34,554 nt of DNA from Planctomycetota bacterium (GTDB taxonomy: Bacteria; Planctomycetota; UBA11346): contig JBBQSO010000058.1 of the NCBI GenBank assembly GCA_038213805.1, positions 1-34,554 on the forward strand, given 5' to 3'. Positions 1 through 34,554 of the stretch are shown in pieces. Within the stretch, counting starts at the first letter, position 1. Each line of letters starts with the position of its first letter. A program made the translations under genes and the position numbers. Below the pieces are notes generated by a model. The model saw only the letters and a program-made list of their open reading frames with translations. It was not told the DNA's origin and did not search any database.

Positions 1-1
1 C

Positions 2-1009: not shown

Positions 1010-1043
1010 AGCCCGCCAACCACCCCCAGCCCGCGAGAACCCG

Positions 1044-1424
1044 ATGACCACCGACGCCGCCAGCGCCATGAGCACGAATACCGCACTCGCCGAAGGCATC
1101 TGGACGCCGGTGTGCGCGCTGGAGGACATCATGCCCGACACCGGGGTGTGCGCGCTGGTCGGCGGCCGCCAGATCGCCATCGTGCGCGTCGGCCAGGGCG
1201 ACATGCTCTACGCGATCAGCAATTTCGATCCGTTCAGCCGGGCGATGGTGCTGGCGCGCGGCATCGTCGGCGATCGCGGCGGCATGCCCAAGATCACCTC
1301 GCCGATCTACAAGCAGGGCTTCGATCTGCGCAGCGGCCAGTGCCTGGACGAACCAAGCATCGTCATTCCGGTCTACGCGGTACGCGTGCAGGGCGGCGTG
1401 GTTGAGGTGCTGGCGGGCGGCTGA
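1044..1424 (+). CDS. nirD: Nitrite reductase small subunit (Rieske-like fold)
   Basis: WTPVCALEDI..GVCALVGGRQIA, NFDPFSRAMVLARGIVGD, SPIYKQGFDLRSGQCLDE; directly downstream of nirB. Start could be 1044 or 1068. Confidence 0.93.
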   Translation: MTTDAASAMSTNTALAEGIWTPVCALEDIMPDTGVCALVGGRQIAIVRVGQGDMLYAISNFDPFSRAMVLARGIVGDRGGMPKITSPIYKQGFDLRSGQCLDEPSIVIPVYAVRVQGGVVEVLAGG

Positions 1425-1939: not shown

Positions 1940-3769
1940 ATGAGTCCCACCGCCCCCGACCAGCTGAAGTCTAGGCCCGCCCCCGGGCGCGGCGGCTTCA
2001 CCCTCTTCGAAGTCGCGCTCGCACTCGGGCTGGTGACCTTCGGCGTGGTCAGCACGCTCATGCTGTTTCCCGCCGGCCTCAAGGCACAGCAGCTCGCGCG
2101 CTTCAAGATCTACGCCAGCGCCAAGGCGCTGGAGATGGTCGACGCCTACAACAGCTTCCATAATCAGAACCCGGCGAGCGATATCGAGGCGCCGAACGCC
2201 TGGGACGTGCACACCACCTACAAGGGTCAGGCGCCCGACCTGGAATCGCGGCTGGCGTCGTACCGCAACGGCCTGCTGCCGCTGCCGCTGACCATCGCCC
2301 GCCGACTCGACTCCGATGGCGATGAGATCCAGAACCTGCTCGCCCAGGGCGGCTACCTCTACTACTCGCAGCCACTCGCCACCACCGGCTTGAACGAGAC
2401 CGCCTTCGGCACCTCGATACCTCCGAACGAGGCGCAGCGCCTGGTCATCGGCGTGATCGGCTTCCCGCAGAACAATGCGATCCCGGCGCTGCCGCAGAAG
2501 GCCTGGCCCTACTACACGCCCTACCCATCGCCGCCCGTGCACCTGCAGCACGTCAACACCGACCTTGGCGGCGCGGACTACTGGAGCGGGCCGAACTGCT
2601 ACGCGTGGGAGCCGCTCGACCGCGCCGACACCGCGATGAAGACGGTGTACGACACGTACAAGGACTACTTCAGCGACCAGACGCGGGAGAAGGCCGTGAT
2701 CTACGCCAAGGAGGCGCTTAACTGGAACTTGGCGAAGGGCATTCCGCTCACCTACCTGAACGGCACCGACAAGATCACGGTCTTCGCCGCGAGCCCCAAC
2801 GGTGACAACCTCTGGCAACAGGTCACCGGCCTGCGCATGTGGGCGCACGCCGCGACCACCGCTTTCCACTGGGCGAGCAGCCAGCCGGTGCCCACCGGCC
2901 AGGCGGCCCCCACCACCATAGACATCGCGGGCAACGCGACGGTCACGCTGAGCGAGCAGACCGTGCGCACCATCCACGACGCGTGCCTGGCCCTGGGCAT
3001 GCGTTTCCAGGCGACGCATCCCTTCGACTTCGGCTGCCCGCGCCCGCTGCAGCGCGCGTTGATGATGGACTTCCCGCTCATCGAATACGATCTCGGCTCG
3101 GCGCCGCTTGAAGGCACCATCTTCGCCAACGGGGCACGCGCCCAGCAGTGGCACCCGGTGGCGACCTCACGACTCACCAGCCTGGGGGTCAGCGCGATGT
3201 ATCCCAACCCCGCATCCTCCTCCGTCGGCGCGATGGGCGAAGCCGCGCTGGGCACGGCAAGCAGCGGCGCCGGCGCAGGCAGCCTGTGGGGAAGCGACCC
3301 CAGCCACGCCACCCTCACCGCGTCCTTCACCGCCGCCGAGCGCTGCCGCCAGATCGTCTTCTGGACCGCCGACTGGCAGTCCTACGACGATTTCGAAACC
3401 GCGCCCAGCGCACCGGTCGACGCCAGCAAGTACCTGAAGGGTGCGCCGCGCAGCAACGCCACCTTCGATTGGTGCATGACCCATCCGCCCTTCATGGACT
3501 GGCAGCAGTACACCTACCGCAATCCGGAAAAGGTCCTGGCCTTCATCGCCAGCAATCGCGCCGCCACCGGCAGCAACGACAGCAACGGCACCGGCGTCCA
3601 CGACCAGGGCAGCAGCCGCGCCGCGGTGTTCTCCGGCCTCTATGGCGCCGATCGCAACGGCAACGGCAAGGCCGATCAGGGCACGGTGCCGCCGTCGGTG
3701 CGCTTGCGCGCCCAGGTTGTCGCCCGCTTCAACTACTATGATCTCCGCGTGCCCGCGGTGATCCGCTGA
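1940..3769 (+). CDS. Large prepilin-type N-terminal cleavage/methylation protein (PilV-like position in cassette)
   Basis: Class III signal RGG|FTLFEVALALGLVTFGVVSTLMLFPAGL with Glu+5; 609 aa; C-terminal DRNGNGKAD Ca-binding-like motif. Confidence 0.85.
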   Translation: MSPTAPDQLKSRPAPGRGGFTLFEVALALGLVTFGVVSTLMLFPAGLKAQQLARFKIYASAKALEMVDAYNSFHNQNPASDIEAPNAWDVHTTYKGQAPDLESRLASYRNGLLPLPLTIARRLDSDGDEIQNLLAQGGYLYYSQPLATTGLNETAFGTSIPPNEAQRLVIGVIGFPQNNAIPALPQKAWPYYTPYPSPPVHLQHVNTDLGGADYWSGPNCYAWEPLDRADTAMKTVYDTYKDYFSDQTREKAVIYAKEALNWNLAKGIPLTYLNGTDKITVFAASPNGDNLWQQVTGLRMWAHAATTAFHWASSQPVPTGQAAPTTIDIAGNATVTLSEQTVRTIHDACLALGMRFQATHPFDFGCPRPLQRALMMDFPLIEYDLGSAPLEGTIFANGARAQQWHPVATSRLTSLGVSAMYPNPASSSVGAMGEAALGTASSGAGAGSLWGSDPSHATLTASFTAAERCRQIVFWTADWQSYDDFETAPSAPVDASKYLKGAPRSNATFDWCMTHPPFMDWQQYTYRNPEKVLAFIASNRAATGSNDSNGTGVHDQGSSRAAVFSGLYGADRNGNGKADQGTVPPSVRLRAQVVARFNYYDLRVPAVIR

Positions 3770-3776
3770 GGTGCCC

Positions 3777-4928
3777 ATGAACAGCAACCGCCGCGCCTTC
3801 ACCCTGATCGAGATGCTGATCGCCATCGCCCTCGGGCTGGTGCTGATCTACACCGCGGCCGCCGGCCTGCGCGTGGCGGCGCAGACCGTGACCGTCGCCA
3901 ACCGCTTGGCGCTCGAGAACGAGATCATGCGCAACGGCTTCGAGATCGCCCTCGACGAGGTCGACCTGTGGCGCGCCTACGACGAGCCCGTCGACACCAT
4001 GCGTCAGCAGCAGCGCGCCCCGGGCGGGATCTTCCGCCCGTTCAAGTCCTCGACCGTCGGGGTGTCAACCACGGCCCCGGCGACCAGCGCGATGATCATC
4101 ATCGACCTGAACAACATCCCCGCTCCCAACGACAGCGAGCGCGGCTGGAATTCAGACTACGCGTGGCCGGTGGCCGACCCGCGCACCTGGTTCCGCAACA
4201 ACATGGCGGAACGTTCCGGGACCGGGCTGCACTTCGGCGGCTACAAGCGCTTCTCCACCGTCGGACCGGCCGACGCCACCGGCCGCACCCACACCTGGCT
4301 GGCCAATCAGCTGGACCGCCTGGTCTCCGCATTCGGCTACTACGGCATGGCCGACTACCTGCCGGCGGGCACCATCTACGACTACGCCGGGGGCTCGTTC
4401 CCGGTCACCGGGGGCGGCATGTGCAGCCTGTTCGCCAACACCGGCGCCATGAACTTCCAGAACGGCGATGGCGGCGCGGACTTCGCCCAGAGTCTGTACC
4501 GGGCGACCAAGAACACCGCCTTCGCGGTCTACCCGCTGACGGCGGCCACGCCGATCGACGCCACCAGCGCGGCCTACACGCGCTGGAACGTGGGGCAGAA
4601 CGCGAACCAGGACAGCACGCGCACCTTCCAGCTCGTGACCAGCAGCCACGATCCGGTCCTAGAGATCCGGCCCACGACCTGGCCGACGCTGACGGTGTCG
4701 ACCGCGCGCACCCTGGCCTACAACCGCTTCGCCTGCGTCGCCCGCGTGCACTGGACGAGCCCCCTGACCGGCAACGCCTCCGAACTGAGCTTCACCTGCT
4801 TCGGCACCAGCCTGCGCGGCGCCCGCCAGCAGCGGCGTGCGGACGCCGGCTGGGCGGTCTGGCACAACGCCGACGCCGGCGCCAGTTCAACGAATCCGAA
4901 CGATGCCACCCTCGACAATGCGAATTGA
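3777..4928 (+). CDS. Prepilin-type N-terminal cleavage/methylation protein (PilW/PulJ-like)
   Basis: NRRA|FTLIEMLIAIALGLVLIY class III signal; starts a few bases after the upstream stop (alternative GTG start at 3771). Confidence 0.85.
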   Translation: MNSNRRAFTLIEMLIAIALGLVLIYTAAAGLRVAAQTVTVANRLALENEIMRNGFEIALDEVDLWRAYDEPVDTMRQQQRAPGGIFRPFKSSTVGVSTTAPATSAMIIIDLNNIPAPNDSERGWNSDYAWPVADPRTWFRNNMAERSGTGLHFGGYKRFSTVGPADATGRTHTWLANQLDRLVSAFGYYGMADYLPAGTIYDYAGGSFPVTGGGMCSLFANTGAMNFQNGDGGADFAQSLYRATKNTAFAVYPLTAATPIDATSAAYTRWNVGQNANQDSTRTFQLVTSSHDPVLEIRPTTWPTLTVSTARTLAYNRFACVARVHWTSPLTGNASELSFTCFGTSLRGARQQRRADAGWAVWHNADAGASSTNPNDATLDNAN

Positions 4929-4929
4929 G

Positions 4930-5973
4930 ATGCCCGCCAACCGCTGCGCTGCGCCCCGGCGCGGCACCGTCCTCATCCTGGTCGCGGGCATCTCCGCATT
5001 GCTCGCGTCGCTCGCCGTATCGTTCCTGGTGCGCATGCGCACAGACGCCGAGGAGAGCGACCGTTCGGTGAGGCTCGCCCAGGCCCACCTGATGCTGGTC
5101 GCATCCTGCAACTTCATCCAGGAACGCTCGCGCATGGGCTGGGACGACCCCAACCCACCCGCCGGGACGCCGGCAACCCACGTCGAATGCTTCGGCTGGG
5201 TCGACATCCGCGATGGCGTCAGCGGGCCGCGCGACCAGACCCAGGGACCCGGCGACTTCGCCGTTCCGGCCGTTCCCGACGAGACCCCGACGCAAATGGC
5301 GGTAGGCACCTGGGCGGATCTGCGCACCCCCCTTGCCACCCGGCCGATCTCGCGGCAGCCGATGTACGTGATGCGCCGTCCACCGTTCGCGGTGCTGCCC
5401 AAGGCCGCGCCCAATGCCATCTCGACCATCCCGGGCGACGTGAATTTCGGCAAGCCGCTGGCCACGCACTGCGACCCGGAACCGGCCGTCAAGCCGCTGC
5501 CCGCCGCGGATACCCCGGCCACCTGGTCCGATTACGCCACCGGCGACAAGACTCCCCTGCCGAGCGGACAGGTGGGCGCCTGGTTCCGCGTCCTGCGCGA
5601 TGGGCCTGCGACCTTCGTCGTCACCTGCGGTTGCGGCGGGACCATGGGCTTCCGCATGCGCGACTGGGACGCCGTCAGCGGCACGGGCGCCATGACCGCC
5701 GAGGACAAGGCGCTGTTCGGCAACGACCGCGACCTGTTCAGCCAGCTTGAGGCCAATGAGGTGCGCCTGTGGTATCGCATCGAATGGTCGGCGAACGTCG
5801 CCGCCGCCGACTATCAATGCCTGCAGAACGAGATCGGTGGCGACCATTGGGTGCAATGGCCGCTGAATGCCAGCGCCGCGCCGAACAACGTGCGCTCGCA
5901 GCCACACCCTACCAATATGGTCGGCACCATCCGCTGGGTGCAGCGCCTGACCAACGAGCCGACCTACTGGTAG
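4930..5973 (+). CDS. PilX/GspK-like pseudopilin
   Basis: PRRG|TVLILVAGISALLASLAVSF: prepilin-like signal lacking Glu+5, as in PilX/GspK; ATG 1 bp after the upstream stop; clear paralogue at 33349-34395. Confidence 0.8.
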   Translation: MPANRCAAPRRGTVLILVAGISALLASLAVSFLVRMRTDAEESDRSVRLAQAHLMLVASCNFIQERSRMGWDDPNPPAGTPATHVECFGWVDIRDGVSGPRDQTQGPGDFAVPAVPDETPTQMAVGTWADLRTPLATRPISRQPMYVMRRPPFAVLPKAAPNAISTIPGDVNFGKPLATHCDPEPAVKPLPAADTPATWSDYATGDKTPLPSGQVGAWFRVLRDGPATFVVTCGCGGTMGFRMRDWDAVSGTGAMTAEDKALFGNDRDLFSQLEANEVRLWYRIEWSANVAAADYQCLQNEIGGDHWVQWPLNASAAPNNVRSQPHPTNMVGTIRWVQRLTNEPTYW

Positions 5974-8394: not shown

Positions 8395-8967
8395 TGCACC
8401 TGCCGCGCATGTCCGCCCCGGATTTCCCCGGGCCTGTGCCTGGTGTCCGACCAATCGAGGGGGCCATCATCCGCCTGGTAAGCGCTGGATTCTACCGCGC
8501 GTCACGCGCACTCGGACACTTCTGACCAGGATGCAGAAACTGGTCTGCGGCCCGCGGGAAAGCAGCCGGGTCATCGTGTTTCCAAGAATCCACATGTCTA
8601 TCAAACGTACACACTCATGGCTTCATGGCGCGTCACAAGATCGAAATTCGAGCACACATGCGCACAAGGCCACTGGTGGAGCGAGGACGAGCTGTACCGA
8701 ATGATGCCCGACTGTTCATCGCGAAGATCCATTTTTGCACAAAAATCAACTTTTGATCGCCCTGCTTCCAGCCCCGCCGTGGTTCCACACGACGCCCCGG
8801 CGAGCAGCTGCAGCGGAGCTGCACCGTCCCGCTTGTGGGGCGCTCCTGCAAATATCCATTTTCAGCGGCAGAGTCCACCTGTTGCGGTCACTCCGCTGGC
8901 CTCTGGACAGGATCGGCGTGCGGAGGGGGGACCGCGTAGCGCCCCGCACGGCCCGTCCAGGCAGCCT

Positions 8968-8984
8968 TTGGCACACACTGCGCA
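8968..8984 (+). promoter_or_regulatory. Putative sigma54 (-24/-12) promoter for nitrate reductase
   Basis: TTGGCACACACTGCGCA: perfect -24 box and GG-N10-GC spacing, about 36 bp before the ATG at 9020. Confidence 0.55.
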
Positions 8985-9019
8985 AAGGGGATGGTCAGCC
9001 ACACCGCGCGGTCCCGTCC

Positions 9020-12000: not shown

Positions 12001-12541
12001 ACAGGCGCAGGCGCTCGCCGAATTCCTGCGCGGCAACCTGCACGCCGGCTACCGCGGACCGGTCAACGCCAACATCCTCAAGGTCGAGGGCGTGCAGCTC
12101 GCCGCGATCGGCACGGTCGACGCCGACGGGCCCGGTACCAGCGCGGTGGTCTTCGACGACCCCGACGGCGGCATCTATCAGAAATGCGTGATCCGCGACG
12201 ACCGCCTGATCGGCGTCATCATGCTCGGCGACACCGCCCTGTTCCCCGACTACCGCGACCTGGTCGCAAGCGGCTGCGAGCTGGAGGAGCGCCGCGCCAC
12301 CCTGCTGCGCCCCAGCGGCGAGATCCGCCGGGTCGAGGGGCCGCTGGTGTGCAGCTGCAACCAGGTCGGGGCGGACACCATCGCGCGCGCGGTGCGCGAG
12401 CAGTCGGCCGCCGGCCCCTGTGAGCTGCAGGCAGTGTGCGCGGCGACGCGCGCGGGGACCTCGTGCGGCAGCTGCCGGCCCGAGGTGCAGAAGCTCATGC
12501 AGACCCACGCCGCGCCGCCCGCGGCCGCGGCCCTGGTCTGA
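9020..12541 (+). CDS. nasA: Assimilatory nitrate reductase: Mo-bisPGD catalytic domain fused to FAD/NAD(P)H oxidoreductase and BFD [2Fe-2S] domains
   Basis: TICCYCGVGCG..MLCSKG 4Fe-4S motif, NMDTNSRLCMSSA, SLTGQPNAMGGRE, LTTGRLRDQWHTMTKTG; then ILIVGGGAA, LATGS, IIGGGVLGIE, and VCSCNQVG..GTSCGSCRPEV. Real start is MPNPTSIKT, not 8735. Confidence 0.92.
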   Translation: MPNPTSIKTICCYCGVGCGIEVSRDVRGKLSLRGDPDHPTNRGMLCSKGRTLLHVVAARDERLRTPQVRLDRDQPLGRTGWDQALGHIAATFKRIIAEHGPDAVGFYCSGQMLTEEYYIVNKLVKGFLGTNNMDTNSRLCMSSAVAGYKQTLGADGPPIAYEDIESCDTFLVTGANPAWCHPILWRRVEARKAVDPAVRIIIVDPRETASCAGADLHLKLRPGTDVALHHGLARRLWETGAIDEAFIADHTEGWAELQAAFAPWTLERTAAECGLAAADIAQAAAWLAGDRRFLSLWTMGLNQSSVGVDKNATLINLSLITGKIGKPGCGPFSLTGQPNAMGGREVGGLANLASAHRDLANPAHRAEIAAHWGVASVPEQLGLSALEMFAALREGRMKAVWIIATNPIESLPDAWDAEAALRAAELVVVQDCYPTATTAFADVVLPAATWLEKTGTMTNSERRIGLLQPLVAPPGDALPDVAIIARFAALMGWERSFAYADAAAIFAEHAALTRGRDCDISGLSHESLRIDGTRQWPAPALDAPAVPRLYTDHRFQTPSGRARLRAPAMLSRSEPLSAAHPLILTTGRLRDQWHTMTKTGRVTKLRDHVDTPFCEIHPDDAGPRGVRSGDIVIVSGARGDVQVRAEVTTTIRAGVVFLPMHWGRQRGGERGRANNLTSPIYDPISKEPDLKFSAVEVRRHTPPAREILIVGGGAAAWAFIAAHRRHNRDDRITVFGEEPLPIYNRVLLPHYVSGHSSWASMVKGGEAELAAQGVAFRPGVRIVRIERKAQEIVDAGGGHHRYDVLILATGSRPARQYQGPLPAHGVFGLRKRSDAEAIRALAGPGRRAVIIGGGVLGIELADALHSLGTHVTVVQRSDRLMGRSLDARAAALLAEHLSGRGIALRFRAEVDELQGGDRITSVTLKDGSVLPCHLAVFATGTAPNAELARAAVLDCSTGIKVDAHLQTSDPVIFAIGEVADFDSQSAGTTAAAEEQAQALAEFLRGNLHAGYRGPVNANILKVEGVQLAAIGTVDADGPGTSAVVFDDPDGGIYQKCVIRDDRLIGVIMLGDTALFPDYRDLVASGCELEERRATLLRPSGEIRRVEGPLVCSCNQVGADTIARAVREQSAAGPCELQAVCAATRAGTSCGSCRPEVQKLMQTHAAPPAAAALV

Positions 12542-12556
12542 CCGCGGCTGGTGCGC

Positions 12557-14310
<1,754 letters not shown>

Positions 14311-14314
<4 letters not shown>

Positions 14315-14748
14315 AGCCGCACCCGACCGGTGAACGCCCGCCCCTCGATCTGCTGCTGGTCGAGGACGACGAGGTCGACGTGCTGGCCATGCGCCGTGCC
14401 CTCGTGCAGTGCGCGCTGCCGCACCGTCTGCACGTGGCCAGTGACGGCCAGACGGCGCTGGCCGTCCTGCGCCGGCGCCCGGTCGCAGCCGGGTCGCGCT
14501 GGCTGGTACTGCTCGACCTCAACCTGCCGCGCATGGGTGGGCTGCAGCTGCTCGCGGCGCTGCGCGCCGACGGCGCGCTGGCGGCCGTGCCGGTGGTGGT
14601 GATGACCACCTCCAGCGACAGCAACGACGTCCGCGCCGCCTTCCGCCACCAGGTGGCCGGATTCTTCAGCAAGCCGCTCGACCCGCTGCAGGCGGCCGCC
14701 ACCATGTCCACCATCACCGCCTATTGGATGCTGAGCGAACTGCCATGA
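14311..14748 (+). CDS. Single-domain response regulator (Rcp1-like)
   Basis: LLLVEDD, LLDLNLPRMGG, VVVMTTS, SKP, and a YW C-terminus; ATGA overlap with the kinase stop. Confidence 0.9.
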
Positions 14749-16196
14749 CCACGGACGCCCCCATGCCGCAGGCCGCCGAGCGCCTGCGCCTGCTGCTCAT
14801 CGACGACGACACCGTCGATCGCATGGCGATCCGCCGCAAGCTCGCCGAGGCCGGGGTCGACGCGGATTTCCACGAGTGCGCCGATGCCGAGCACGGCAGC
14901 GCCACGCTCGACCGGGGCGGCTTCGACGCGGTGCTGCTCGACTACCACCTGCCGGGCGCGAACGGCAGCGCGGTGCTGGCGCGCGCGCGCGGTGGGCGCA
15001 CGCCGATCGTGGTGCTGTCAGGGCAGACCTCGCCGCAGATCGTCGCCGAGCTGATGAAGGAGGGCGCCAGCGATTACCTGGTCAAGGACGGCCTGACCAG
15101 CGAACGCCTCGCCACCACTGTGCGCAACGCCATCTCGGGCAGCCGCGCGCGCCTGCTCGCCGTCGAGCGCGCCGCCGCGCTGCGCGTGCTGGTCGAGGCG
15201 ACCGCGCCGGTGGTCGGCAGCGATTTCTTCAGCGTCCTGGTCCGCCACCTCGCCCTGGCGGCGCACGCGCGCCACGTGGCGGTCGCCGAACTGATCGACG
15301 ATGGCGGCACCTGCCGCAGCCTGGCGCTGTGGTCGGACGGGGCGCTCCAGCCGCCGCGCGAATGGGCGGTGGCCACCGCGCCCTGCCGCGAGGTGCTCGC
15401 GGGCGGGGCGGCGGTCGAACGTGCGGACGCGCACCTCGACTTCGCCGCGCGCCAGGGACAGCTCGCGGCGACGGCCTACCTCGGCCTCGCGCTGCGCGAC
15501 GATCACGGCCGTCCGCTCGGCACGCTCAGCCTGTGGAGCGATGCGCCGCCGCAGGGCAGCGCGCGCGCCAGCCTTGATGCCATCCTTGCGGTGGTGGTCG
15601 AGCGCGCCGCCGCCGAACTGCTGCGCCTGCGCACGCAGACTGCCCTGACCAGCAGCCTGCGCCTGGAAAAGGGCCTGACCGGCTGCGCGCGCGCGCTGCT
15701 CGCCGACGTCCAACCGCCGCGCACCCTCGATCTCGCCCTGCGCCACCTGGTCGAGACCACCAACGCCAGCGCCATCACCCTGTTCGAAAACGAGGAGGAC
15801 GGCGCCGGCGACCGCTGCCTGCGGCGCACCGCCAGCGCCACGATCGGCGAGGCCACCCTCCCCGCACCGGAGGTCCTGCCGTACCGCAGCGGCCTGCGCC
15901 GCTGGGAGAACGACCTGTCCTCAGGCCTGGCGGTGGGCGGACTGGTACGGCACCTGCCGGGCGACGAGCAGAGCCTGCTCGCCGGGGTGCGCACGGTGCT
16001 CGCCCTGCCAGTGAATGTTCGCGGCGAGTGGGTGGGCTTCCTGCGCATCGACGACTGCCGCACCGACTACCGCTGGCTCAAGGAAGAGGTGCGCCTGCTG
16101 CGTAGCGGCGCGGACCTGGTGGGCGCTTACCTGGAACGGCGCGGGCCGCTCCATGGCCTGCGCCGGCAAGGACTTCCAGCCTCAGTCGAGCGCTAG
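14745..16196 (+). CDS. Response regulator receiver with two GAF-like domains and no recognisable output domain
   Basis: LLLIDDD, LLDYHLPG, ASDYLVK; GAF-like GSDFFSVLVRHLA..APCREV..AYLGLAL and VLALPVNVRGEWVGFLRIDDC..RWLKEEVRLL; ATGA overlap with the upstream gene. Confidence 0.85.
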   Translation: MTTDAPMPQAAERLRLLLIDDDTVDRMAIRRKLAEAGVDADFHECADAEHGSATLDRGGFDAVLLDYHLPGANGSAVLARARGGRTPIVVLSGQTSPQIVAELMKEGASDYLVKDGLTSERLATTVRNAISGSRARLLAVERAAALRVLVEATAPVVGSDFFSVLVRHLALAAHARHVAVAELIDDGGTCRSLALWSDGALQPPREWAVATAPCREVLAGGAAVERADAHLDFAARQGQLAATAYLGLALRDDHGRPLGTLSLWSDAPPQGSARASLDAILAVVVERAAAELLRLRTQTALTSSLRLEKGLTGCARALLADVQPPRTLDLALRHLVETTNASAITLFENEEDGAGDRCLRRTASATIGEATLPAPEVLPYRSGLRRWENDLSSGLAVGGLVRHLPGDEQSLLAGVRTVLALPVNVRGEWVGFLRIDDCRTDYRWLKEEVRLLRSGADLVGAYLERRGPLHGLRRQGLPASVER

Positions 16197-27065: not shown

Positions 27066-27665
27066 GTGCCCCCACCCAGCGCCGATCGCGACCTGCCCGA
27101 GGGCGGCGACACCGCCCTGCTCGATGGGCTGGCGCGGCGTATCCAGAGTGGCGACCACGATGCCTTCATGGCCCTGGTCGAGGCCACCGAACGGGACCTG
27201 CGCATTTTCGCAACCATATATGCGACAAGTCTTTCGATGGTCGATGAGGTAGTCCAGGCAACCTACGTCACGTGCTTTGAGAGCATCGCCAACTACCAGC
27301 CGCGCGGTACCCTGCGCGCCTGGCTGAAGGGCATCGCCCGGCACAAGCTGCTGAAGGACCTGCGCGAGCGCTCGCGCCAGTGCACCCTCGACGGCGAGGT
27401 CCTGGAACAGCTTCTGGCCCAGGCCGGGACGCGCGATCTCGAACAGCCCGACGACGGCACCGAAGAGCGCGTGGCACGCCTGCAGGCCTGCCTGGAGGAA
27501 CTCGCTCCTGAGGCCCGCCGCCTGATCCGCGAGCGTTACTACGAGGACCGTGCGGTGAATGACATCGCGCGCCTGCTCGAGCGTTCGGCGAGCTGGGTGG
27601 CGGTGACGCTGTTCCGCATCCGCAAGACCCTGCTGGTCTGCATCCGCCAGGGCGGTGCCACATGA
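27066..27665 (+). CDS. ECF-type sigma-70 factor
   Basis: Region 2 (DEVVQATYV..AWLKGIAR) and region 4 (LQACLEEL..IARLL..VTLFRIRKTL). Confidence 0.9.
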   Translation: MPPPSADRDLPEGGDTALLDGLARRIQSGDHDAFMALVEATERDLRIFATIYATSLSMVDEVVQATYVTCFESIANYQPRGTLRAWLKGIARHKLLKDLRERSRQCTLDGEVLEQLLAQAGTRDLEQPDDGTEERVARLQACLEELAPEARRLIRERYYEDRAVNDIARLLERSASWVAVTLFRIRKTLLVCIRQGGAT

Positions 27666-28987
27666 GCGATCCCGGGGATGGCGATGATGTCAGCGAGTCG
27701 ATTGCCGGACTGATCGCTGCATACATCGAGGGCACCCTCGGCGAGGCCGCGCGCCAGCGCCTGATCACGTGGGTGCAGGCCGATCCGGACCATGCTGCGA
27801 CATTCTCCGCTCAGGTGCGCCTGCACCTCACCCTCACCGGGCTGCTGCGGCCCGACCTCTCCGAAAATGTGCTGCGCCGGGCGCGTCTGATCCCTGGTTC
27901 GTTCGCCGCGGCGCGCGTGCGCCGGGTGGTGGACTCGACACGGTCGCTCACCGGCCAGCGCGCGCGCCGGCGGCCAGCGTCGCGCCGCTGGCTGGTGGCG
28001 GCGCTGGTCCTGATCCTTGTCGGAGCAGGGGCAGGCGCACTGCTGATCGACGCCCGAAACGACGCCGGCCTGCCCAGCAGCGCGGTGCTCGCCGCCACCA
28101 CCCTCGAGACACGCGTCGAGCGCGGCGGCAAGACGTTGACCATCGCCGAGGGCGGCGCGCTGCGCCAGGGCGACGTGCTGGTGACCGGCGAGCACGGCCC
28201 GGCGGCGCTGGCGTTCAGCGGCGAGAGCACGCGCATCGACACCGAGGCGAACACCCGCCTGACCGTGCTCGCTGGACCGGGCAAGCGCCTGCGCTTGGAC
28301 AGCGGTACGGTGCACGTGCAGGCCGCCCCGCAGCCGGCCGGCCGGCCGCTGGTGATCTCCACCCCGCGCACCGACGTGACCGTGGTCGGCACCGTCTTCG
28401 ACGTGGTCGCCTCACCGGTCGCAACCTGGCTCGACGTACGCAGCGGCACGGTGCAGCTCGGACGCGCCGGCGATGGCACCCCGTTCGCGGTCGGCGCCGG
28501 CCAGCGCGCGCTCGCCGGGGACGTGCTCAGCGTGGTGCCCGCCGACCACGGCAGCGGGCTGCTCGGCGCGTACTACAGCGGCAGCTCGTTCGAGACCCTG
28601 GTGCTGGAGCGCATCGACCCGCGCATCGACTTCGACTGGCGGGACCGCGGCCCGGCCGCCGGCGTCGAGATCGCGCACTTCTCGGTGCGCTGGACCGGCG
28701 AGATCGAGGCGCCGCGCGACGGCACCTACACCTTCTACCTGCCCTCCGACGACGGCGTGCGGCTGTGGCTCGACGGCGAACTGGTGTTCGACAACTGGCG
28801 CATCCAGAGCTTCGTGCGCAGCGCCTCGCACCACGCCGCACACGCGCTGAAGGCCGGGCACCGCGCGCGCATCCGCCTCGACTACTTCGAGTACGAGCAC
28901 CTCGCCGCCGTGCAGCTGGAGTGGGCCGGCCCAGGCCTGCCGCGCCAGGTCATCGACTCCGCCGCGCTTTATCCGCTGCCGCGCTGA
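27662..28987 (+). CDS. Anti-sigma-like membrane protein with FecR and PA14 domains
   Basis: ATGA-coupled to the ECF sigma; one TM; FecR-like LRLDSGTV..STPRTDVTVVGTVF; PA14 GLLGAYY..RIDPRIDFDW..FSVRWTG..SDDGVRLWLDG. Confidence 0.88.
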   Translation: MSDPGDGDDVSESIAGLIAAYIEGTLGEAARQRLITWVQADPDHAATFSAQVRLHLTLTGLLRPDLSENVLRRARLIPGSFAAARVRRVVDSTRSLTGQRARRRPASRRWLVAALVLILVGAGAGALLIDARNDAGLPSSAVLAATTLETRVERGGKTLTIAEGGALRQGDVLVTGEHGPAALAFSGESTRIDTEANTRLTVLAGPGKRLRLDSGTVHVQAAPQPAGRPLVISTPRTDVTVVGTVFDVVASPVATWLDVRSGTVQLGRAGDGTPFAVGAGQRALAGDVLSVVPADHGSGLLGAYYSGSSFETLVLERIDPRIDFDWRDRGPAAGVEIAHFSVRWTGEIEAPRDGTYTFYLPSDDGVRLWLDGELVFDNWRIQSFVRSASHHAAHALKAGHRARIRLDYFEYEHLAAVQLEWAGPGLPRQVIDSAALYPLPR

Positions 28988-29028
28988 TCAGCCCTGCCCA
29001 TCCAGACCCCGCCGCGAAAGGCCCCGCC

Positions 29029-32000
29029 GTGAAATCGTCTTCCCTGGTCCCCGCCCTCGCCCTGCTCTGCTCCGCCGCCATCGCCAATGCCGCCGAAGCT
29101 GGCGGCCACCAGGTGAACGGCGACGCCACCCTCGTCGAGGTCACCACCACCGACGAGAAGGATTTCCTCAAGCCGCTGAAGCTCGACGAGGGCTTCAGCG
29201 CGCGGGTATGGGCGGCGGGCGCGGCGGTCGCCAACATTGTGGCCATGGACGTGGACGCGCACAACCGGCTCTACACCGCGCAGACCTTCCGTTTCCGCAT
29301 CAAGGGCGTGCTCGACGTGCGCGAGGCGATGTTCCTGTACCGCGACGATCTGCGCAGCCGCACCACCGCGGACCGCTTGGCGATGATGAAGAAGTGGACC
29401 GATCAGGGCATGTTCAAGCCCGGCTTCTTCACCAAGGATTCGGAGCGCGTCTCGCTGCTGCAAGACACCAAGGGCGGCGGCGCGGCCGACCGCATCCAGA
29501 TCTTCGCCGACGGTTTCAATGATCCGCTCGACGGCACCGCGTCGGGGATCCTGGTCGGCGACAGCGTCGCCGGCAAGACCACCGTCTACCTGGCCGCGAT
29601 CCCCAAGGTGTGGGCGCTGACCGACAGCACCGGCACGGGCGTCGCCGACCGGCGTGGCGCGATCAGCGAGGGCTACGGTCCGCGCTTCAGCATCAGCGGC
29701 CACGATCTGCACGGCCTGGTGCGCGGTCCCGATGGCCGCGTCTACTGGTCGGTGGGCGATCGCGGCTATGACGTCACCACCAAGGAGGGCGCGCACTTCG
29801 GCGATCCCACCAGTGGCGCGGTGTTCAGGGCCGAGCCCGACGGCAGCGGCGTGGAGCTGTACTACACCGGCCTGCGCAACCCCGAGGAGCTCGCCTTCAA
29901 CGCCTACGGCGACCTCTTCACCTGCGACAACAACGCCGACATCGGCGACAAATCCCGCGTGGTCTACATCCTCGAGGGCGGCAGCAATGGCTGGAGCCAC
30001 GGCTGGCAGATGTTGACGAGTGCCGCTTTCTCAAAGGCTGGCCTGCTCGACGGGCCGCAGCCCGAGTCGTGGCTGGACGAAGGCCTGTGGAAGACGCGCT
30101 TCCCCGGGCAGCCGGCCTGGATCCTGCCGCCCATCGGCTACGCCACCGCCGGCCCGTGCGGATTGGCCACGGTGCCCGGCACCGGCTGGCCCGCCGCCAT
30201 GCAGGGCCAGTTCCTGGTCTGCGACTACCGTGGCGGCACCGGCTCGGCCGTGCTGTCGTTCACACCGACGGTGGAAGGCGCCGGCTACGGCATGGCCGAG
30301 GCGCAGACCTTCCTGGCCAACACCGGCGCCACCGACGTGACCTTCGACTACGCCGGCAACCTCTTCGTCAGCGACTACCTAGGCGGCTGGGCGCAGGCCG
30401 ACAAGGGCGCGATCCTGGCCGTGGTGCCAAAACGCGACGCGGCGCAGACCGCCGCCGTCGAGGCCGAACGCAAGCTCGTTGCCGAGGGCTTCGACAAGCG
30501 CCCGGTGGCGGAGCTGGCCAAGCTGCTCGCGCACGCCGACCAGCGCGTGCGCCAGTTTGCGCAGTTCGAGCTCGCGCGCCGCGGCAAGGACGGCTTGGCC
30601 GCGCTCAGCGCGGTGGCCAAGGCACCGGCCAGCGGCGAACCCTTGGCGCGCCTGCACGCCATCTGGGGCATCGGTCAAATCGCCCGCGCCGACGCCAGCG
30701 CGGCGGCTGCGCTGATGCCGCTGCTCGCCGACCAGGACAGCCACGTGCGCGAACAGGCCGCGAAGATGCTCGGCGACTGCCGTTACCCGGCCGCGGGCAG
30801 CGCCCTGGTGCCGCTGCTCGCCGACTCCGACCTGCGCGTGCGCGCCTTCTCCGCCATCGCCCTCGGACGTCTGAAGTTCGCACCTGCGGTGCCCGCCCTG
30901 CTGCAGCTGCTTGCGACGAACAACGACCAGGACGCATGCCTGCGCCATGCCGCCGTCATGGGTCTGGCCGGCGCCGCCGACGGCGCCACCCTCGCGCGCT
31001 ACAGTGGCGAATCCGCCAAGGCCACGCGCCTGGGCGTGCTGCTGGCCATGCGTCGGCAGTCCGACGCGCACATTGCGGCATTCCTGAAGGACGCCGACAA
31101 TGGCATCCGCGCCGAGGCGATGCGCGCGATCTACGATCTGCCGATCGTCGCCGCGATGCCCGCCCTCATCGCCGAGCTCGGCAAGCCGCTGCCAGCAGAA
31201 CAGCCCGAGGGTGCGGAGAAACTGCTCGCACTGCGCCTGATCAACGCCGCGCAGCGCTACGGTGACGATCGCGCGCCGGCAGCACTCGCGGCTTTCGCCG
31301 CCGGCGACACCGCCCCCGCGGCGATCCGCGCGCAAGCGCTGGCGCTGCTCGGCAAGTGGGCGCATCCCACCACTGTCGACCCGGTCATCGGCCTCTATCG
31401 CCCGGCGCCGGTGCACGAGCACGCGCTCGACGCGGCCGCGCTCAAGGCGCCGATCATGAAGATCATCGCGGGCGGCGACAAGGAGATGCTCACCAACGCG
31501 GTGACGCTCGCCGCGCAGCTCGGCTACGGACTGGACGAAAAGACCCTACTCGGCCTGCTCGCGGACGGCAAGATGCCCGCGTCGGTGCGTGCCGAGGCAC
31601 TACGCCAGCTGTCCGCGCACCCGCCGGCGGATTTCGCCAAACGCCTCGACGGACTGCTCGACGATCCGTCCGCCGAGATGCGCATCGCCGCCTTCGACGC
31701 CAAGGTGGCGGCCGACCCGGCGCAGCTGGTGGCGACGGTCAGACGCGTCCTCGACGACGCAGCACCCGCCGCGCCCAAGGAGGGTATCACGGTGGTGGTC
31801 GACCACACCAGCGACGACTGGGATGATCTCGCGATGCGCGGGCCGGCCGCGAAGGGCGAGGCCGACAGCGACCCCGCCGCCGGCGCGTCGCCCGCAACCT
31901 GGGTCGACGGTTTCGCCAAGCCGCACAAAGACGCAGGCGCGATCGGTGCCACCCTTCCGCGCCTGACCAGCGGCCAGGTCGCGCGCACCGACGACGACGT

Positions 32001-33060
32001 CGAGCGCAACACCTGGTGCGACGGTGGCGAGAGCCGCTTCGTCCTCGACCTCGGCAAGGCCCAGCCGGTCGCGCGCGTCAGCACCTACTCGTGGCACAAG
32101 GCCAACCGCGCCCAGCAGCTGTTCGTGCTGTGGGGCGCTGGCGGCGCCAGCCAGCCGGCGACCACGGGGGACCCCGCCAAGGCCGGCTGGACGCAGATCG
32201 CCAAGGTCGACTCCACCCCGCTCGGCGACGGCGGTAAGCACGGCAGCGCCGTACAAGGCGGCGGCAAGGACGGCCTCGGCCGCTACCGCTGGCTGATGTG
32301 GCAGAATCTCGCCCACGGCGGCATCGGCACGTTCTACTCGCAGCTCGACGTGTTCACCACCAGCCGCACCCTGCCCGCGCTGGCTGCCGGCGGCGACCGC
32401 GCCGTGATCCAGCTGCGCCAGCACGCGCTGCTCGCGCTCGGCACCGCCAAGGATGCGCAGGCCGCGACCCTGCTCGGGCAGTGGCTCGACCGCATCATCG
32501 CCGGCAACGCGCCGGCCCAACTCGCCCTGGAGGTGACTGAGGCGGCCAAGGTGCGCAGCGAACCCACCCTCGCCGCCAAGCTGGCGCAGTGGCAGGCCGC
32601 GCTGTCGGCCAAGGACCCGCTGGCGCCCTTCCGCCTCACCCAGGCCGGCGGCGACGTCGAGCGCGGGCGCACGGTCTTCCGCCAGCACGCGGTGCAGTGC
32701 ATCCGCTGCCACGCCGTCGACGGCGAGGGCGGCAACGTCGGCCCCGACCTGCGCGGCGTGCCGACGCGGCTGGTGCGCGACAAGCTGCTTGAGTCGCTGA
32801 TCGTACCGAGCGCCGAGATCGCGCCTGGCTACGGCATCGCCACGGTCACGCTGAAGGACGGCTCGACCATCGCTGGCGGCGTGCTCACGCAGTCCGCCAC
32901 CACGCTGGTGCTGCGCCTGCCCGATGGCAAGGAGCGCACCGTGCCGATGACCACCGTCACCAACGTCAGCGCGCCGATCTCCCCGATGCCGCCGATGGGA
33001 CAGGCGCTGACGCGCTTCGAATTACGGGATGTGCTGGCGTACCTGTACACCTTGAAGTGA
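29029..33060 (+). CDS. PVC-type membrane-bound dehydrogenase-domain / HEAT-repeat / heme-binding CxxCH protein
   Basis: Signal peptide from GTG at 29029; propeller region (GHDLHGL..GPDGRVYWSVGDRG, GLRNPEELAF..DNNAD); HEAT repeats; C-terminal GGDVERGRTVF..CIRCH..GPDL..LLESLIVPSAEIAPGY..SPMP. Confidence 0.9.
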   Translation: MKSSSLVPALALLCSAAIANAAEAGGHQVNGDATLVEVTTTDEKDFLKPLKLDEGFSARVWAAGAAVANIVAMDVDAHNRLYTAQTFRFRIKGVLDVREAMFLYRDDLRSRTTADRLAMMKKWTDQGMFKPGFFTKDSERVSLLQDTKGGGAADRIQIFADGFNDPLDGTASGILVGDSVAGKTTVYLAAIPKVWALTDSTGTGVADRRGAISEGYGPRFSISGHDLHGLVRGPDGRVYWSVGDRGYDVTTKEGAHFGDPTSGAVFRAEPDGSGVELYYTGLRNPEELAFNAYGDLFTCDNNADIGDKSRVVYILEGGSNGWSHGWQMLTSAAFSKAGLLDGPQPESWLDEGLWKTRFPGQPAWILPPIGYATAGPCGLATVPGTGWPAAMQGQFLVCDYRGGTGSAVLSFTPTVEGAGYGMAEAQTFLANTGATDVTFDYAGNLFVSDYLGGWAQADKGAILAVVPKRDAAQTAAVEAERKLVAEGFDKRPVAELAKLLAHADQRVRQFAQFELARRGKDGLAALSAVAKAPASGEPLARLHAIWGIGQIARADASAAAALMPLLADQDSHVREQAAKMLGDCRYPAAGSALVPLLADSDLRVRAFSAIALGRLKFAPAVPALLQLLATNNDQDACLRHAAVMGLAGAADGATLARYSGESAKATRLGVLLAMRRQSDAHIAAFLKDADNGIRAEAMRAIYDLPIVAAMPALIAELGKPLPAEQPEGAEKLLALRLINAAQRYGDDRAPAALAAFAAGDTAPAAIRAQALALLGKWAHPTTVDPVIGLYRPAPVHEHALDAAALKAPIMKIIAGGDKEMLTNAVTLAAQLGYGLDEKTLLGLLADGKMPASVRAEALRQLSAHPPADFAKRLDGLLDDPSAEMRIAAFDAKVAADPAQLVATVRRVLDDAAPAAPKEGITVVVDHTSDDWDDLAMRGPAAKGEADSDPAAGASPATWVDGFAKPHKDAGAIGATLPRLTSGQVARTDDDVERNTWCDGGESRFVLDLGKAQPVARVSTYSWHKANRAQQLFVLWGAGGASQPATTGDPAKAGWTQIAKVDSTPLGDGGKHGSAVQGGGKDGLGRYRWLMWQNLAHGGIGTFYSQLDVFTTSRTLPALAAGGDRAVIQLRQHALLALGTAKDAQAATLLGQWLDRIIAGNAPAQLALEVTEAAKVRSEPTLAAKLAQWQAALSAKDPLAPFRLTQAGGDVERGRTVFRQHAVQCIRCHAVDGEGGNVGPDLRGVPTRLVRDKLLESLIVPSAEIAPGYGIATVTLKDGSTIAGGVLTQSATTLVLRLPDGKERTVPMTTVTNVSAPISPMPPMGQALTRFELRDVLAYLYTLK

Positions 33061-33348
33061 CGGCGCGCCGAACCCGCGCATCGCCACCGCGGCGGGGTCG
33101 GGCGCCAGTTCGATCACGCGCACCGTCTACTGTGGTCGCGCTGGCGCCCGCCCCCCAGCCGCTCGGCGCGTGAGTCGATGTGGCGCGTGCGCCGAGCACC
33201 TCCGTCGCGCCGAGAAAAAAACGGCTCTCGGACGCGTAGCGTAAAGTGCATCTCCGCTTCCATTGCCAACCAGCGGCAGCAGGCCTGGGTGGGGCGTTGG
33301 GGCGCGCATGGCGTGAGGCGGCAGCTTGCGTGCTTGGACGCTGCCGTC

Positions 33349-34395
33349 TCACCAGACCGCCGGCTCCGTCCGCAGCCGCTGGATCCACTGGATCGTGCCG
33401 CCCATGTTGGGGGCCATCATGGTGCCGGAGTAGGCGACGTGGACCCCGGACCCGCCGCCAGTGTAGGTGGGCGAGGCCACGATGAAGTGCTCCTCGGTGT
33501 GCTCGCGCAGGTAGTTCATGTCGGTGGCGGTGGTAGCAGCGTTCCATTCGACGCGGTACCACATGCGGATCTCGCTGGCATCGAACGCGCGGAAGGACTC
33601 ATAGTCGTTGGCGAAGCGCGCCTTGTCGTTGGCGGTCATGGCGGTGGCCGGGTCGCTGCCGTTCCATTCCTGCAGCCGGAAGCCCTGGGTGCCGCCGCAG
33701 CCGCAGGTCACGGTGAAGACTGCGCCGGTGCGTTCGCGAACCAGGCGGAACCACGACATGCCGTAGGAATTCATGCGCGGCGTGGGATCGCCGGCCGCCC
33801 AGGCGGCGAAATTCGCGCCAGTGACACTGCCTTCGGGATGCGCCAAGTCGCGCAGCCAGCCGTTGGCCGTGACCGGTTGGGGATCGGGATAGCGTAGGTA
33901 CGATTTCCCGCTGTCGGGAGCGGTCATCTGCACCGGGTTGTAGCCGGTGGCCAGTTGGATCGCATAGGGTGGCTGCACCAAAACGTGCATCGGGAAGCGC
34001 TGCGGCACGCCGATGGGGAAGTTGGTCTTCCCCACATCACCGGGATCGACCGGGTACGGGGTGAGCGCGCGCTCCGCAGAGGTGATCGCGGCAGTGTTGG
34101 GGCGGGGTCCCAGACTGCCGTCGCGCACGTCGATCCAGCCGTGGCCCTCGATGTGCTCGCCGCTGGTCAGCGCGGCGGAATCGAGGCCGAGCCGCGCACG
34201 TTCCTGGATGAAGTCGCACGCGGCCGTGAGCATCAGCCGCGCCTGCGCCTCGTGGACGAGGATGGTCATCTCCTGCAGGTCGTTGCGGCCCTCAAGCAGG
34301 AAGACCAGCGCCAGCGACGAGAGCAGGGCGGAGATGCCGGCGACGATGATCAGTACCGTCCCCGAGCGGGGTCCACTGCGCGCGGTGGACCTCAT
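33349..34395 (-). CDS. PilX/GspK-like pseudopilin, paralogue of 4930-5973
   Basis: PRSG|TVLIIVAGISALLSSLA, CDFIQERARLG, GWIDVRDG, TCGCGGTQGFR, WYRVEW, GTIQWIQRL..EP..W. Confidence 0.82.
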   Translation of the reverse strand: MRSTARSGPRSGTVLIIVAGISALLSSLALVFLLEGRNDLQEMTILVHEAQARLMLTAACDFIQERARLGLDSAALTSGEHIEGHGWIDVRDGSLGPRPNTAAITSAERALTPYPVDPGDVGKTNFPIGVPQRFPMHVLVQPPYAIQLATGYNPVQMTAPDSGKSYLRYPDPQPVTANGWLRDLAHPEGSVTGANFAAWAAGDPTPRMNSYGMSWFRLVRERTGAVFTVTCGCGGTQGFRLQEWNGSDPATAMTANDKARFANDYESFRAFDASEIRMWYRVEWNAATTATDMNYLREHTEEHFIVASPTYTGGGSGVHVAYSGTMMAPNMGGTIQWIQRLRTEPAVW

Positions 34396-34553
34396 GGCGC
34401 GGCTGCGTAGTCGAGGGTGGGTTCGCTGGTGGCGTCGACCACCCAGCCGCCGGCCGGCAGGCGCTGCTGCCGGGCGCCGCGCAGGGTCGTACCGACGCAC
34501 GCGAAGGGGATGGTGATCGCGGCGCCGGTCAGCGGCGACCGGCAGGTGACTTC
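34392..34553 (-). CDS. C-terminus of a PilW-like prepilin, paralogue of 3777-4928 (5' end outside the window; absent from the ORF track)
   Basis: Manual translation: EVTCRSPLTGAAITIPFACVGTTLRGARQQRLPAGGW..EPTLDYAAAP*, versus WTSPLTG..FTCFGTSLRGARQQR..GW..TLD in the first cassette; ATGA overlap with the downstream gene. Confidence 0.8.
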   Translation of the reverse strand, partial: EVTCRSPLTGAAITIPFACVGTTLRGARQQRLPAGGWVVDATSEPTLDYAAAP

Positions 34554-34554
34554 G

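Follow-up and report, generated by a model that had tools for sequence, protein, structure and literature searches.

A multiplied trio of prepilin-like genes in a Planctomycetota genome, a candidate tip complex of type IV filaments

Introduction

Both the timing of type IV filament assembly and the choice of what the filament binds or secretes are set by minor-pilin tip complexes. In the pseudopilus of type II secretion this complex consists of GspI, GspJ and GspK (also called XcpV, XcpW and XcpX; PDB entry 3CI0). According to PMC6211770, GspI/XcpV is the nucleator, and XcpX contacts XcpV while having "no significant interaction" with XcpW. The type IVa pili of Myxococcus xanthus have several alternative priming-complex sets of PilV, PilW and PilX together with PilY1 (PMC7541494, PMC8833165). 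Large tip proteins resembling minor pilins, of about 600 residues, occur in Tad pili (CpaL/TadG; PMC13533445), and PilB of S. sanguinis is a modular pilin (PMC8179133). The present analysis concerns a contig of 34,554 nucleotides from a Planctomycetota bacterium (JBBQSO010000058.1, or C58, called "the window" below and analysed at its full length), which carries two copies of a set of three adjacent prepilin-like genes, g1, g2 and g3. The genes of the right-hand copy are marked with a prime.

A further arrangement of this kind is formed by the Verru_Chthon proteins A-D (TIGR02596 and TIGR02598-TIGR02600), which make up multi-copy prepilin cassettes of Verrucomicrobia. Literature searches on minor pilins of Planctomycetes, on pseudopilins of Planctomycetota and on the Verru_Chthon cassette, the last of which gave no paper, turned up no account of the trio. 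Each trio probably specifies one full alternative set of the proteins that initiate or tip a type IV filament, which could be a type IV pilus or the pseudopilus of type II secretion. It would correspond to GspI-GspJ-GspK or PilV-PilW-PilX.

Organization of the trios

The segment 33349-34554 at the right-hand end of the window contains, on the minus strand, a complete open reading frame (g3') and the end of a second one (g2'). The initial annotation held that both genes recur about 27 kb away on the opposite strand in the same order, and this is what the alignments show. The two copies are 27.4 kb apart. The g3' protein and the left-hand g3 are identical at 138 of 354 positions (39%; BLASTP E 4e-72, 33349-34500 of the minus strand against 4837-5973 of the plus strand), and the g2' fragment (34392-34553, minus strand) matches the C-terminus of the left-hand g2 at 22 of 39 positions (56%, E 1e-12). 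All of the shared blocks listed in the initial annotation lie within these alignments. Judged by these similarities, the paralogy of g3' and g2' to the left-hand cluster is real and well beyond chance.

The g3' precursor has 348 residues, the same length as database gene call P0001, and consists of a basic 12-residue leader, MRSTARSGPRSG, followed by TVLIIVAGISALL. Its start codon overlaps the stop codon of g2', an abutment that reads as in a translationally coupled operon. The left-hand g3 has possible alternative in-frame starts at 4903 and 4918. Consensus scans of 32900-34554 detected neither a sigma-70-type promoter nor an intrinsic terminator.

The remainder of the right-hand trio is situated on another contig, C24. 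The window is one entire contig of an assembly of 5.5 Mb in 180 contigs, and the final 23 bases of C24 (65037-65059) are identical to the first 23 bases of its reverse complement (window 34532-34554). The reading frame of g2' is continuous across this overlap. C24 holds the first ~340 codons of g2' as well as the g1' paralogue (open reading frame call at C24:61666-64017), so that the gene-1 copy which the initial annotation proposed to look for upstream exists. In a congener, G003, a single contig aligns with 82% DNA identity to the end of C24 and then to the reverse-complemented start of C58, with an overlap of ~22 bases; the orthologous trio is unbroken and colinear there, with protein identities of 82% for g1, 75% for g2 and 81% for g3. 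A contig of 5,649 bases from sequencing run X1 spans 33090-34554 without mismatch and extends 4,184 bases beyond the window end, but it is not independent support because X1 is possibly the source sample. Read from the overlap and the congener, C24 followed by the reverse complement of C58 is the arrangement in which the two contigs belong together. The break between them falls inside g2', in the conserved "...CEVTCRSPLTG" region.

Searches with tblastn, and with hidden Markov models of the paralogues over six-frame open reading frames, found 11 copies each of g1, g2 and g3, always adjacent and in the order g1-g2-g3. The left-hand window trio is on C58 and the right-hand one on C24 and C58; the other nine are on C7, C72, C86, C1, C3, C33, C81, C37 and C26. 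The paralogues are 38-48% identical to the window copy in g3, 33-41% in g2 and 39-52% in g1. Contig C2 contains in addition a short g1-like open frame of 127 residues (6443-6823, plus strand) that matches the g1 profile at positions 59-135 only (E 2.5e-9), possibly a remnant or a distant small relative of g1.

Prepilin signals and family membership

The identity of the unit as a prepilin cassette, as first annotated, is borne out by g2, which passes the cut-offs of both PF07963 (29.6 bits, cut-off 21.2) and TIGR02532 (23.1 bits, cut-off 16.3). Searching the genome with PF07963 recovers all 11 g2 proteins and two of the 11 g1 proteins, one of these below the cut-off. The g1 of the window has no Pfam match, though its signal G/FTLFE (the slash marks the cleavage position) can be read directly; the form [GA]/FTLFEVA is present in all 11 copies. 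Both g1 and g2 have Glu5. The signal of g3, G/T-[VI]-L-I-[LIV], is of class III type, with a hydrophobic helix and no Glu at +5. Residues G1, T2, L4 and I5 each occur in at least 90% of 84 g3 sequences, and the leader ends in G except in one of the 11 copies, where it ends in A. GspK also lacks Glu5.

The sole match of g3 in the family libraries is the GspK model NF037980, over its first ~55 positions (2-57) and with E 0.07-0.09. With 12.3 and 12.6 bits, where the model requires 130, the g3 copies do not qualify as members of the GspK family; neither window g3 matches any Pfam family, T2SSK included, at E <= 1. The g1 protein scores 17.3 bits on the PilV model TIGR02523 (cut-off 52.2), at the N-terminus only. 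On the Verru_Chthon models g1 reaches 17.5 bits for protein B (TIGR02598, cut-off 51.4) and g2 11.3 bits for protein C (TIGR02599, cut-off 256.5), both below the cut-offs. Beyond the signal no Pfam domain was detected in g1, g2 or g3, and profile searches of the PDB sequences with all three returned no credible relative. Their database relatives, all from Planctomycetes/Planctomycetota metagenome bins, are named "hypothetical protein", "prepilin-type ... domain-containing protein" or "pseudopilin PulG". In the ESM Atlas, g1 and g2 find only their own unnamed Planctomycetota clusters.

Towards the C-terminus of g2, residues L340, R341, G342, A343, R344 and R347 are invariant in 78 sequences. 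The most conserved block of the protein, SPLTG...G(T/S)(T/S)LRGARQQR, is situated just upstream of the start of g3 (window ~4743-4860 and ~34437-34553). It may form a groove for the C-terminal strand of g3, or may be constrained by overlapping translation signals.

Structure models and the predicted g1-g3 complex

The AlphaFold2 model of g3', calculated from an alignment of 84 sequences, has a predicted local distance difference test score (pLDDT) of 82.2 and a predicted template modelling score (pTM) of 0.71. An N-terminal helix of 57 residues (2-58) is accompanied by a beta-rich domain, the last element of which is a conserved strand (323-330). When the model was compared with 48,161 PDB chains using VIA-align, the top match was GspK in the GspK-GspI-GspJ complex of enterotoxigenic Escherichia coli (3ci0_K), with a modest Z of 8.3 and a root-mean-square deviation of 2.7 Å over 103 aligned residues in the range 30-332 of the model. 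This is the only chain with Z >= 8; the next row, at Z 5.8, matches the helix only.

In the model of g1 (91 sequences; pLDDT 84.1, pTM 0.79) the helix is of pilin type, residues ~205-341 form a helical bundle, and the C-terminus contains a long strand (574-582). Residues R570, Y582, D583 and R585 are invariant in the 91 sequences. Foldseek found no match for this model in the PDB at E <= 0.001. A segment near the g1 C-terminus, G-A-D-R-N-x-N-x-x-x-D-R-G (residues 551-563, window ~3644-3682), is nearly invariant in the 11 copies and resembles an EF-hand-type calcium loop of the kind known from PilY1. It lies outside the predicted contact with g3.

The g1 (26-591) and g3 (26-336) proteins of the left-hand trio, with the first 25 hydrophobic residues removed, were predicted to bind each other, with a median interface score (ipSAE) of 0.86 (0.86, 0.87 and 0.84 in the individual runs), whereas the best of three controls gave 0.00. 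Contact agreement between the runs was at least 68% and the partner pLDDT at least 69. Of 157 solved complexes 116 attain the pass mark for ipSAE, as do 2 of 215 mismatched pairs, counts that apply only roughly here because self-built alignments were used. It is unlikely that the pair passed through a memorised structure, because there is no detectable sequence similarity to the solved GspI-GspK complex. As a prediction, the modelling supports binding of g3 to g1.

On the g3 side the contacts of lowest error involve the invariant PMYV...PPYA...YNP segment (132-153 of the left-hand copy) and the alpha-1 helix. On the g1 side they involve residues 154-162, the ERCRQ motif (447-453) and the C-terminal RFNYYD strand (577-582), all highly conserved segments. 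Column entropy is lower in the predicted interface than in the rest of the protein, both for g1 (1.14 against 1.52, p 4.6e-5) and for g3 (1.26 against 1.54, p 0.0096). Eleven of the 14 residues of the C.FIQER.R.G.D block, one of those noted in the initial annotation, contact g1 in the predicted complex. The conserved blocks of g3 are better explained, in the models, as assembly elements, namely the N-terminal pilin helix, the predicted g1 interface and the C-terminal strand. The predicted docking matches the XcpX-XcpV architecture (PMC6211770), and it is reminiscent of the way in which a beta-strand is added in initiation complexes at the tip (PMC13533445).

Divergence of the copies and the question of inversion

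When the pairwise identities of the 11 trios are compared gene by gene, the matrices for g1, g2 and g3 correlate with each other (r 0.89, 0.79 and 0.80; Mantel p about 2e-4). The trios were duplicated as units and have not exchanged parts. Relative to the G003 ortholog, the ratio of nonsynonymous to synonymous substitution rates (dN/dS) is 0.29 for g1, 0.36 for the N-terminal part of g2 and 0.22 for g3, and no 30-codon window of g3 exceeds 0.71. Values this far under 1 show that the genes function and are under constraint.

The initial annotation had treated the window copies as a special inverted pair: a fixed ligand-binding scaffold with variable loops, possibly switched by inversion and carrying a metal or disulfide site at a Cys-Gly-Cys motif. 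The opposite orientation of the copies, 27.4 kb apart, is compatible with such a pair, but most of what follows makes it very improbable. The two are members of a family of 11 copies on 11 contigs, and pairwise identities show that they are not mutual nearest relatives. Inversion between them would lack a substrate because the shared DNA is too short: the longest common exact word is 16 nucleotides and the similar patches are at most 178 nucleotides long at 73-80% identity, the best being 178 nucleotides at 73%. No recombinase family was found among the 19 open reading frames scanned between the copies. This interval is taken up by housekeeping genes, among them those of the nitrate assimilation, two-component, sigma-54 activator and helicase classes. 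Each copy is an entire operon and has its own starts and leaders, the right-hand one when joined through C24. The contigs of runs X1 and X2 contain no joint linking the two copies, although contigs cannot reveal rare forms. An invertible or recombining pilin cassette, as used for phase or antigenic variation, was likewise considered and rejected: the two copies have no long near-identical repeats in common, the open reading frames scanned between them gave no recombinase match, and neither copy is partial.

The variable loops are a separate matter. Predicted helices and strands have a column entropy of 1.21 among the 11 paralogues and coil one of 1.48 (p 0.006), variability has a lag-1 autocorrelation of 0.33 against a shuffle maximum of 0.20, and 108 of 128 inserted columns fall in coil. 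The clustering of variation in loops around a fixed scaffold, which also favours the inverted-pair explanation, is thus correct as described. However, it is no proof of diversifying selection, because fast loops are normal in any family and purifying selection prevails throughout the tested pair; a search of that one ortholog pair, which has low power, gave no signal of diversifying selection. The Cys-Gly-Cys site fails as proposed because its second cysteine is not conserved. C49 and C220 of g3', candidate partners in a disulfide, are each present in 82 of 84 family members, and the one paralogue without C49 retains C220, but the second cysteine, C222, occurs in 5 of 84 sequences and in two of the 11 paralogues, the two window copies, to which the motif is peculiar. 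Taken from the sequence comparisons, the trio copies are old, separately conserved versions and not a flip-switch pair.

Distribution

A g3 profile matches 337 cluster representatives (E <= 0.001) among 1.84 billion. In sampled genomes g3 is present in all ten others of the genus, in 19 of 24 of the same GTDB family and in none of 16 genomes from 16 other Planctomycetota families. In a wider draw, with eight candidates scored per genome, it was found in 6 of 13 family members and in none of the genomes drawn from other Planctomycetota families; with this genome included, the total is 7 of 251. Among the genomes searched, g3 is confined to one, uncultured Planctomycetota family.

The number of g3 matches per genome is 2-11 within the genus, and 24 and 42 (G022) in two other genera. 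The expansion of the trio, counted by these matches, goes much further elsewhere in the family. In relatives there are tandem trios 5-7 kb apart on the same strand (G004:C78 73142-80992 and G007:C2 17219-23368).

The trio of the congener G003 (locus L033, G003:C19 9819-14124) resembles C24/C58 at the DNA level from ~23 bases before the mature g1 N-terminus to the g3 stop. The flanking proteins of one congener's trio were not found within 6-9 kb in the other genome. This comparison hints that the trio relocates as a unit between neighbourhoods in close relatives.

Genomic context

The features of the window that bear on the two trios are given in Table 1.

Table 1. Coordinates of the trio genes and of the genes convergent on g3'
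Feature	Positions	Strand	Remarks
g3', K-position minor pilin-like gene, right-hand trio	33349..34395	-	stop 33349-33351, ATG 34395-34393; open reading frame read
g2' 3' end, right-hand trio	34392..34554	-	final 53 codons and stop; remainder at C24:64033-65059
ATGA overlap of g2' and g3'	34392..34395	-	g2' TGA 34394-34392, g3' ATG 34395-34393; direct sequence reading
g1, left-hand trio	1940..3769	+	609-residue giant prepilin-like protein, I-position; leader ending RG, then GFTLFEVALAL
g2, left-hand trio	3771..4928	+	385-residue prepilin (AFTLIEM), J-position; PF07963, TIGR02532
g3, left-hand trio	4930..5973	+	347 residues from ATG 4930; database gene call P0100, 347 residues, on same contig
Extracytoplasmic function (ECF) sigma factor	27237-27662	+	convergent on g3'
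FecR-PA14 anti-sigma factor	27773-28984	+	convergent on g3'
DUF7133/HEAT/cytochrome c protein, 1,343 residues	29029-33057	+	convergent on g3'

The sigma factor, anti-sigma factor and cytochrome c-type genes facing g3' form a co-directional unit (27237-33060, plus strand). On C24 the right-hand trio is preceded by a protein of 1,229 residues with fn3, CHB_HEX_C and GDSL esterase domains. A sigma/FecR-PA14 pair paralogous to that of the window is directly upstream of the C72 trio on the same strand, with an alpha-galactosidase downstream; the anti-sigma factors of the two loci are 33% identical. The C1 trio has FecR and CHB_HEX_C proteins upstream, the C7 trio is flanked by beta-helix-PA14 and PA14-DUF6797 proteins, and the genes that come after the C26 trio encode a fucosidase, a LacI regulator and a GH2 protein. 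An ECF-like sequence, AAC-N15-18-CGT/GTC, occurs upstream of g1 in three of the 11 cassettes, at scattered positions.

The left-hand trio has nitrite reductase genes on one side and nitrate reductase genes on the other. More precisely (window 1-1421 and 8918-16193), it is inserted between nirB/nirD-type nitrite reductase genes and a phosphate-type porin. Next come a fused assimilatory nitrate reductase of 1,207 residues with molybdopterin and pyridine-nucleotide oxidoreductase domains, a sensor kinase whose N-terminal sensor domain is of PilJ type, and response regulators.

The machinery needed for a filament is encoded elsewhere in the genome. There are four long and five short T2SSE ATPase frames (the short ones of 372-414 residues), four two-domain T2SSF genes, six secretin matches and one prepilin peptidase, on C91. 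Candidates for H-type and major pilins include the prepilin clusters on C5, C23, C38 and C55.

Assembly and function of the tip complex

In the proposed mechanism, the single prepilin peptidase would process g1, g2 and g3, which would insert into the membrane by their N-terminal hydrophobic helices. The K-type g3, having no Glu5 and a conserved C-terminal strand, is predicted to dock on g1, with the best-conserved motifs of the two proteins in contact. With its inserted domains and a size 5-7 times that of a normal I-type pilin, g1 is probably the subunit that is exposed and bears the function. Priming and capping of a filament, itself built by the machinery encoded elsewhere, would then fall to the trimer. 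The eleven sets are old duplicates, copied en bloc and kept under purifying selection.

A number of observations weigh against this mechanism. Neither g1 nor g2 reaches the cut-off of a curated family beyond the N-terminal signal. The Z of 8.3 for g3 is about the usual best match for models without a true match, Foldseek found no PDB match for the g3 model at E <= 0.001, and the best VIA-align matches of the g1 model are generic helical bundles (Z 6.4), with no recognisable GspI or PilV among them. The binding prediction covers the g1-g3 pair, with self-built alignments. Only the C26 trio shares a contig with ATPase and platform genes, ~13 kb apart, and genes for H-type minor pilins and major pilins are absent from all cassettes. 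A common upstream motif was not found: no 8-10-mer is present in more than five of the 11 g1 upstream regions, and those that are shared are GC-rich. As to function, carbohydrate-related neighbours, recognised by Pfam domains, occur at 5 of the 11 loci, a count that has no background control, and the G003 ortholog of the right-hand trio is surrounded by unrelated genes. The modest Z of g3 nevertheless carries weight because it is consistent with an independent sequence hint and with the gene order.

Some of the same observations could be explained if the pilin-type signal were a mere membrane anchor or export route, and the three proteins formed a periplasmic or surface complex outside any filament. 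The cassettes and their surroundings encode neither a major pilin nor an H-type pilin nor the machinery, no pilin-like fold match is known for g1, and 21 additional N_methyl matches outside the cassettes show that pilin-type signals are widely used in this genome. Such a complex would not, however, call for the strict I-J-K-like order with Glu5 in g1 and g2 and not in g3, for GspK as the top structural match or for the predicted docking of g1 and g3 through their alpha-1 helices, which makes this explanation rather improbable.

A less remote alternative, though still an unlikely one, confines the trios to the tips of type II secretion pseudopili: each set would adapt the piston to a different group of secreted enzymes, and nothing would be displayed on the surface. 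The resemblance of g3 is to GspK and not to any PilX structure of a type IV pilus, its C-terminal strand is in cis as in the K-type pilins of type II secretion (PMC13533445), the cassette has no PilY1-like gene, and glycoside hydrolase and esterase genes are near several cassettes. A precedent from a verrucomicrobium, a relative within the superphylum, is consistent with it: its pseudopilin genes are reported to be expanded and alginate-induced, with a pulG-like gene in an alginate cluster and 67 homologues of that gene in the genome (PMC13274419). On the other hand, a periplasmic piston under a secretin would have little room for an I-position subunit of 590-840 residues, the five short T2SSE frames may be retraction-type ATPases, and no cassette is linked to a secretion-system operon.

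If the trios are alternative tip complexes, the retention of each set by purifying selection indicates that each probably confers a distinct filament specificity. The best guess, taken from the neighbouring genes, is that the specificities are for different polysaccharides. The more detailed proposal that the trio is the substrate-specific tip of a polysaccharide-capturing fibre, with g1 as a glycan-binding head and g3 as a K-type clamp, the sets being switched by their own glycan-sensing ECF sigma/FecR-PA14 pair or another local regulator, is speculative and on present evidence doubtful. The link to glycans is a lead and not a finding, given the uncontrolled 5 of 11 loci and the unrelated neighbourhood in G003. 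It fits the reports that dextran is bound to pili-like fibres of Planctomycetes (PMC5394234) and that the pseudopilin genes of the verrucomicrobium are multiplied and respond to alginate (PMC13274419).

Relation to known systems

Like GspI-GspJ-GspK (PMC6211770), the trio consists of three adjacent genes in I-J-K order of which the first two have Glu5 signals and the third lacks Glu5; the best structural match of g3 is GspK, the K-type protein is predicted to bind the protein in the I-position and its C-terminal strand is in cis. It differs in that g3 is not a member by sequence (12 bits against 130, and no match to Pfam T2SSK), that g1 has 590-840 residues and no GspI-like match, and that there are eleven unlinked copies with no adjoining GspG or GspH gene instead of one set in a gsp operon. 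GspI has roughly 120 residues, and g2 is about twice the size of GspJ.

The multiple minor-pilin sets of M. xanthus, which prime and cap one filament type and have a large adhesive tip protein, are similar in principle. The trios differ from them in lacking a separate PilY1 beta-propeller gene and an H-type pilin, in having a large protein that is a prepilin in its own right, and in a far higher copy number, with 11 in this genome and up to 24 and 42 g3 matches in relatives. With CpaL/TadG and PilB, g1 shares an N-terminus of pilin type, a large middle that is inserted or grafted, and strong conservation of the strand at its extreme C-terminus, which in g1 is in the predicted interface. It differs from them in that g1 has no sequence or fold match to either, its inserted domains match no Pfam family, and its C-terminal strand is predicted to contact g3, not being known to complete its own sheet. 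With Verru_Chthon the trio shares a multi-copy prepilin-like cassette in the Planctomycetes-Verrucomicrobia-Chlamydiae superphylum and weak matches of g1 and g2 to proteins B and C in order; the scores are far under the cut-offs and reflect the N-terminal signal only, and the unit has three genes and not four. The trio is most likely a lineage-restricted, highly multiplied family of I-J-K-type filament-tip genes with an unusually large first subunit.

Significance

The analysis gives a testable role to three unnamed protein families, for which there is no Pfam family beyond the signal peptide and no solved relative, and joins two contigs. Were the polysaccharide-capturing fibre to prove real, it would provide a genetic handle on the fibre-bound dextran of Planctomycetes (PMC5394234) and would explain why genomes of one family carry from 11 to more than 40 sets. 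If each set gives a different specificity, one machine could display a repertoire of tips. For bacteria that are known to use polysaccharides, such a repertoire would offer a simple way of covering a range of substrates.

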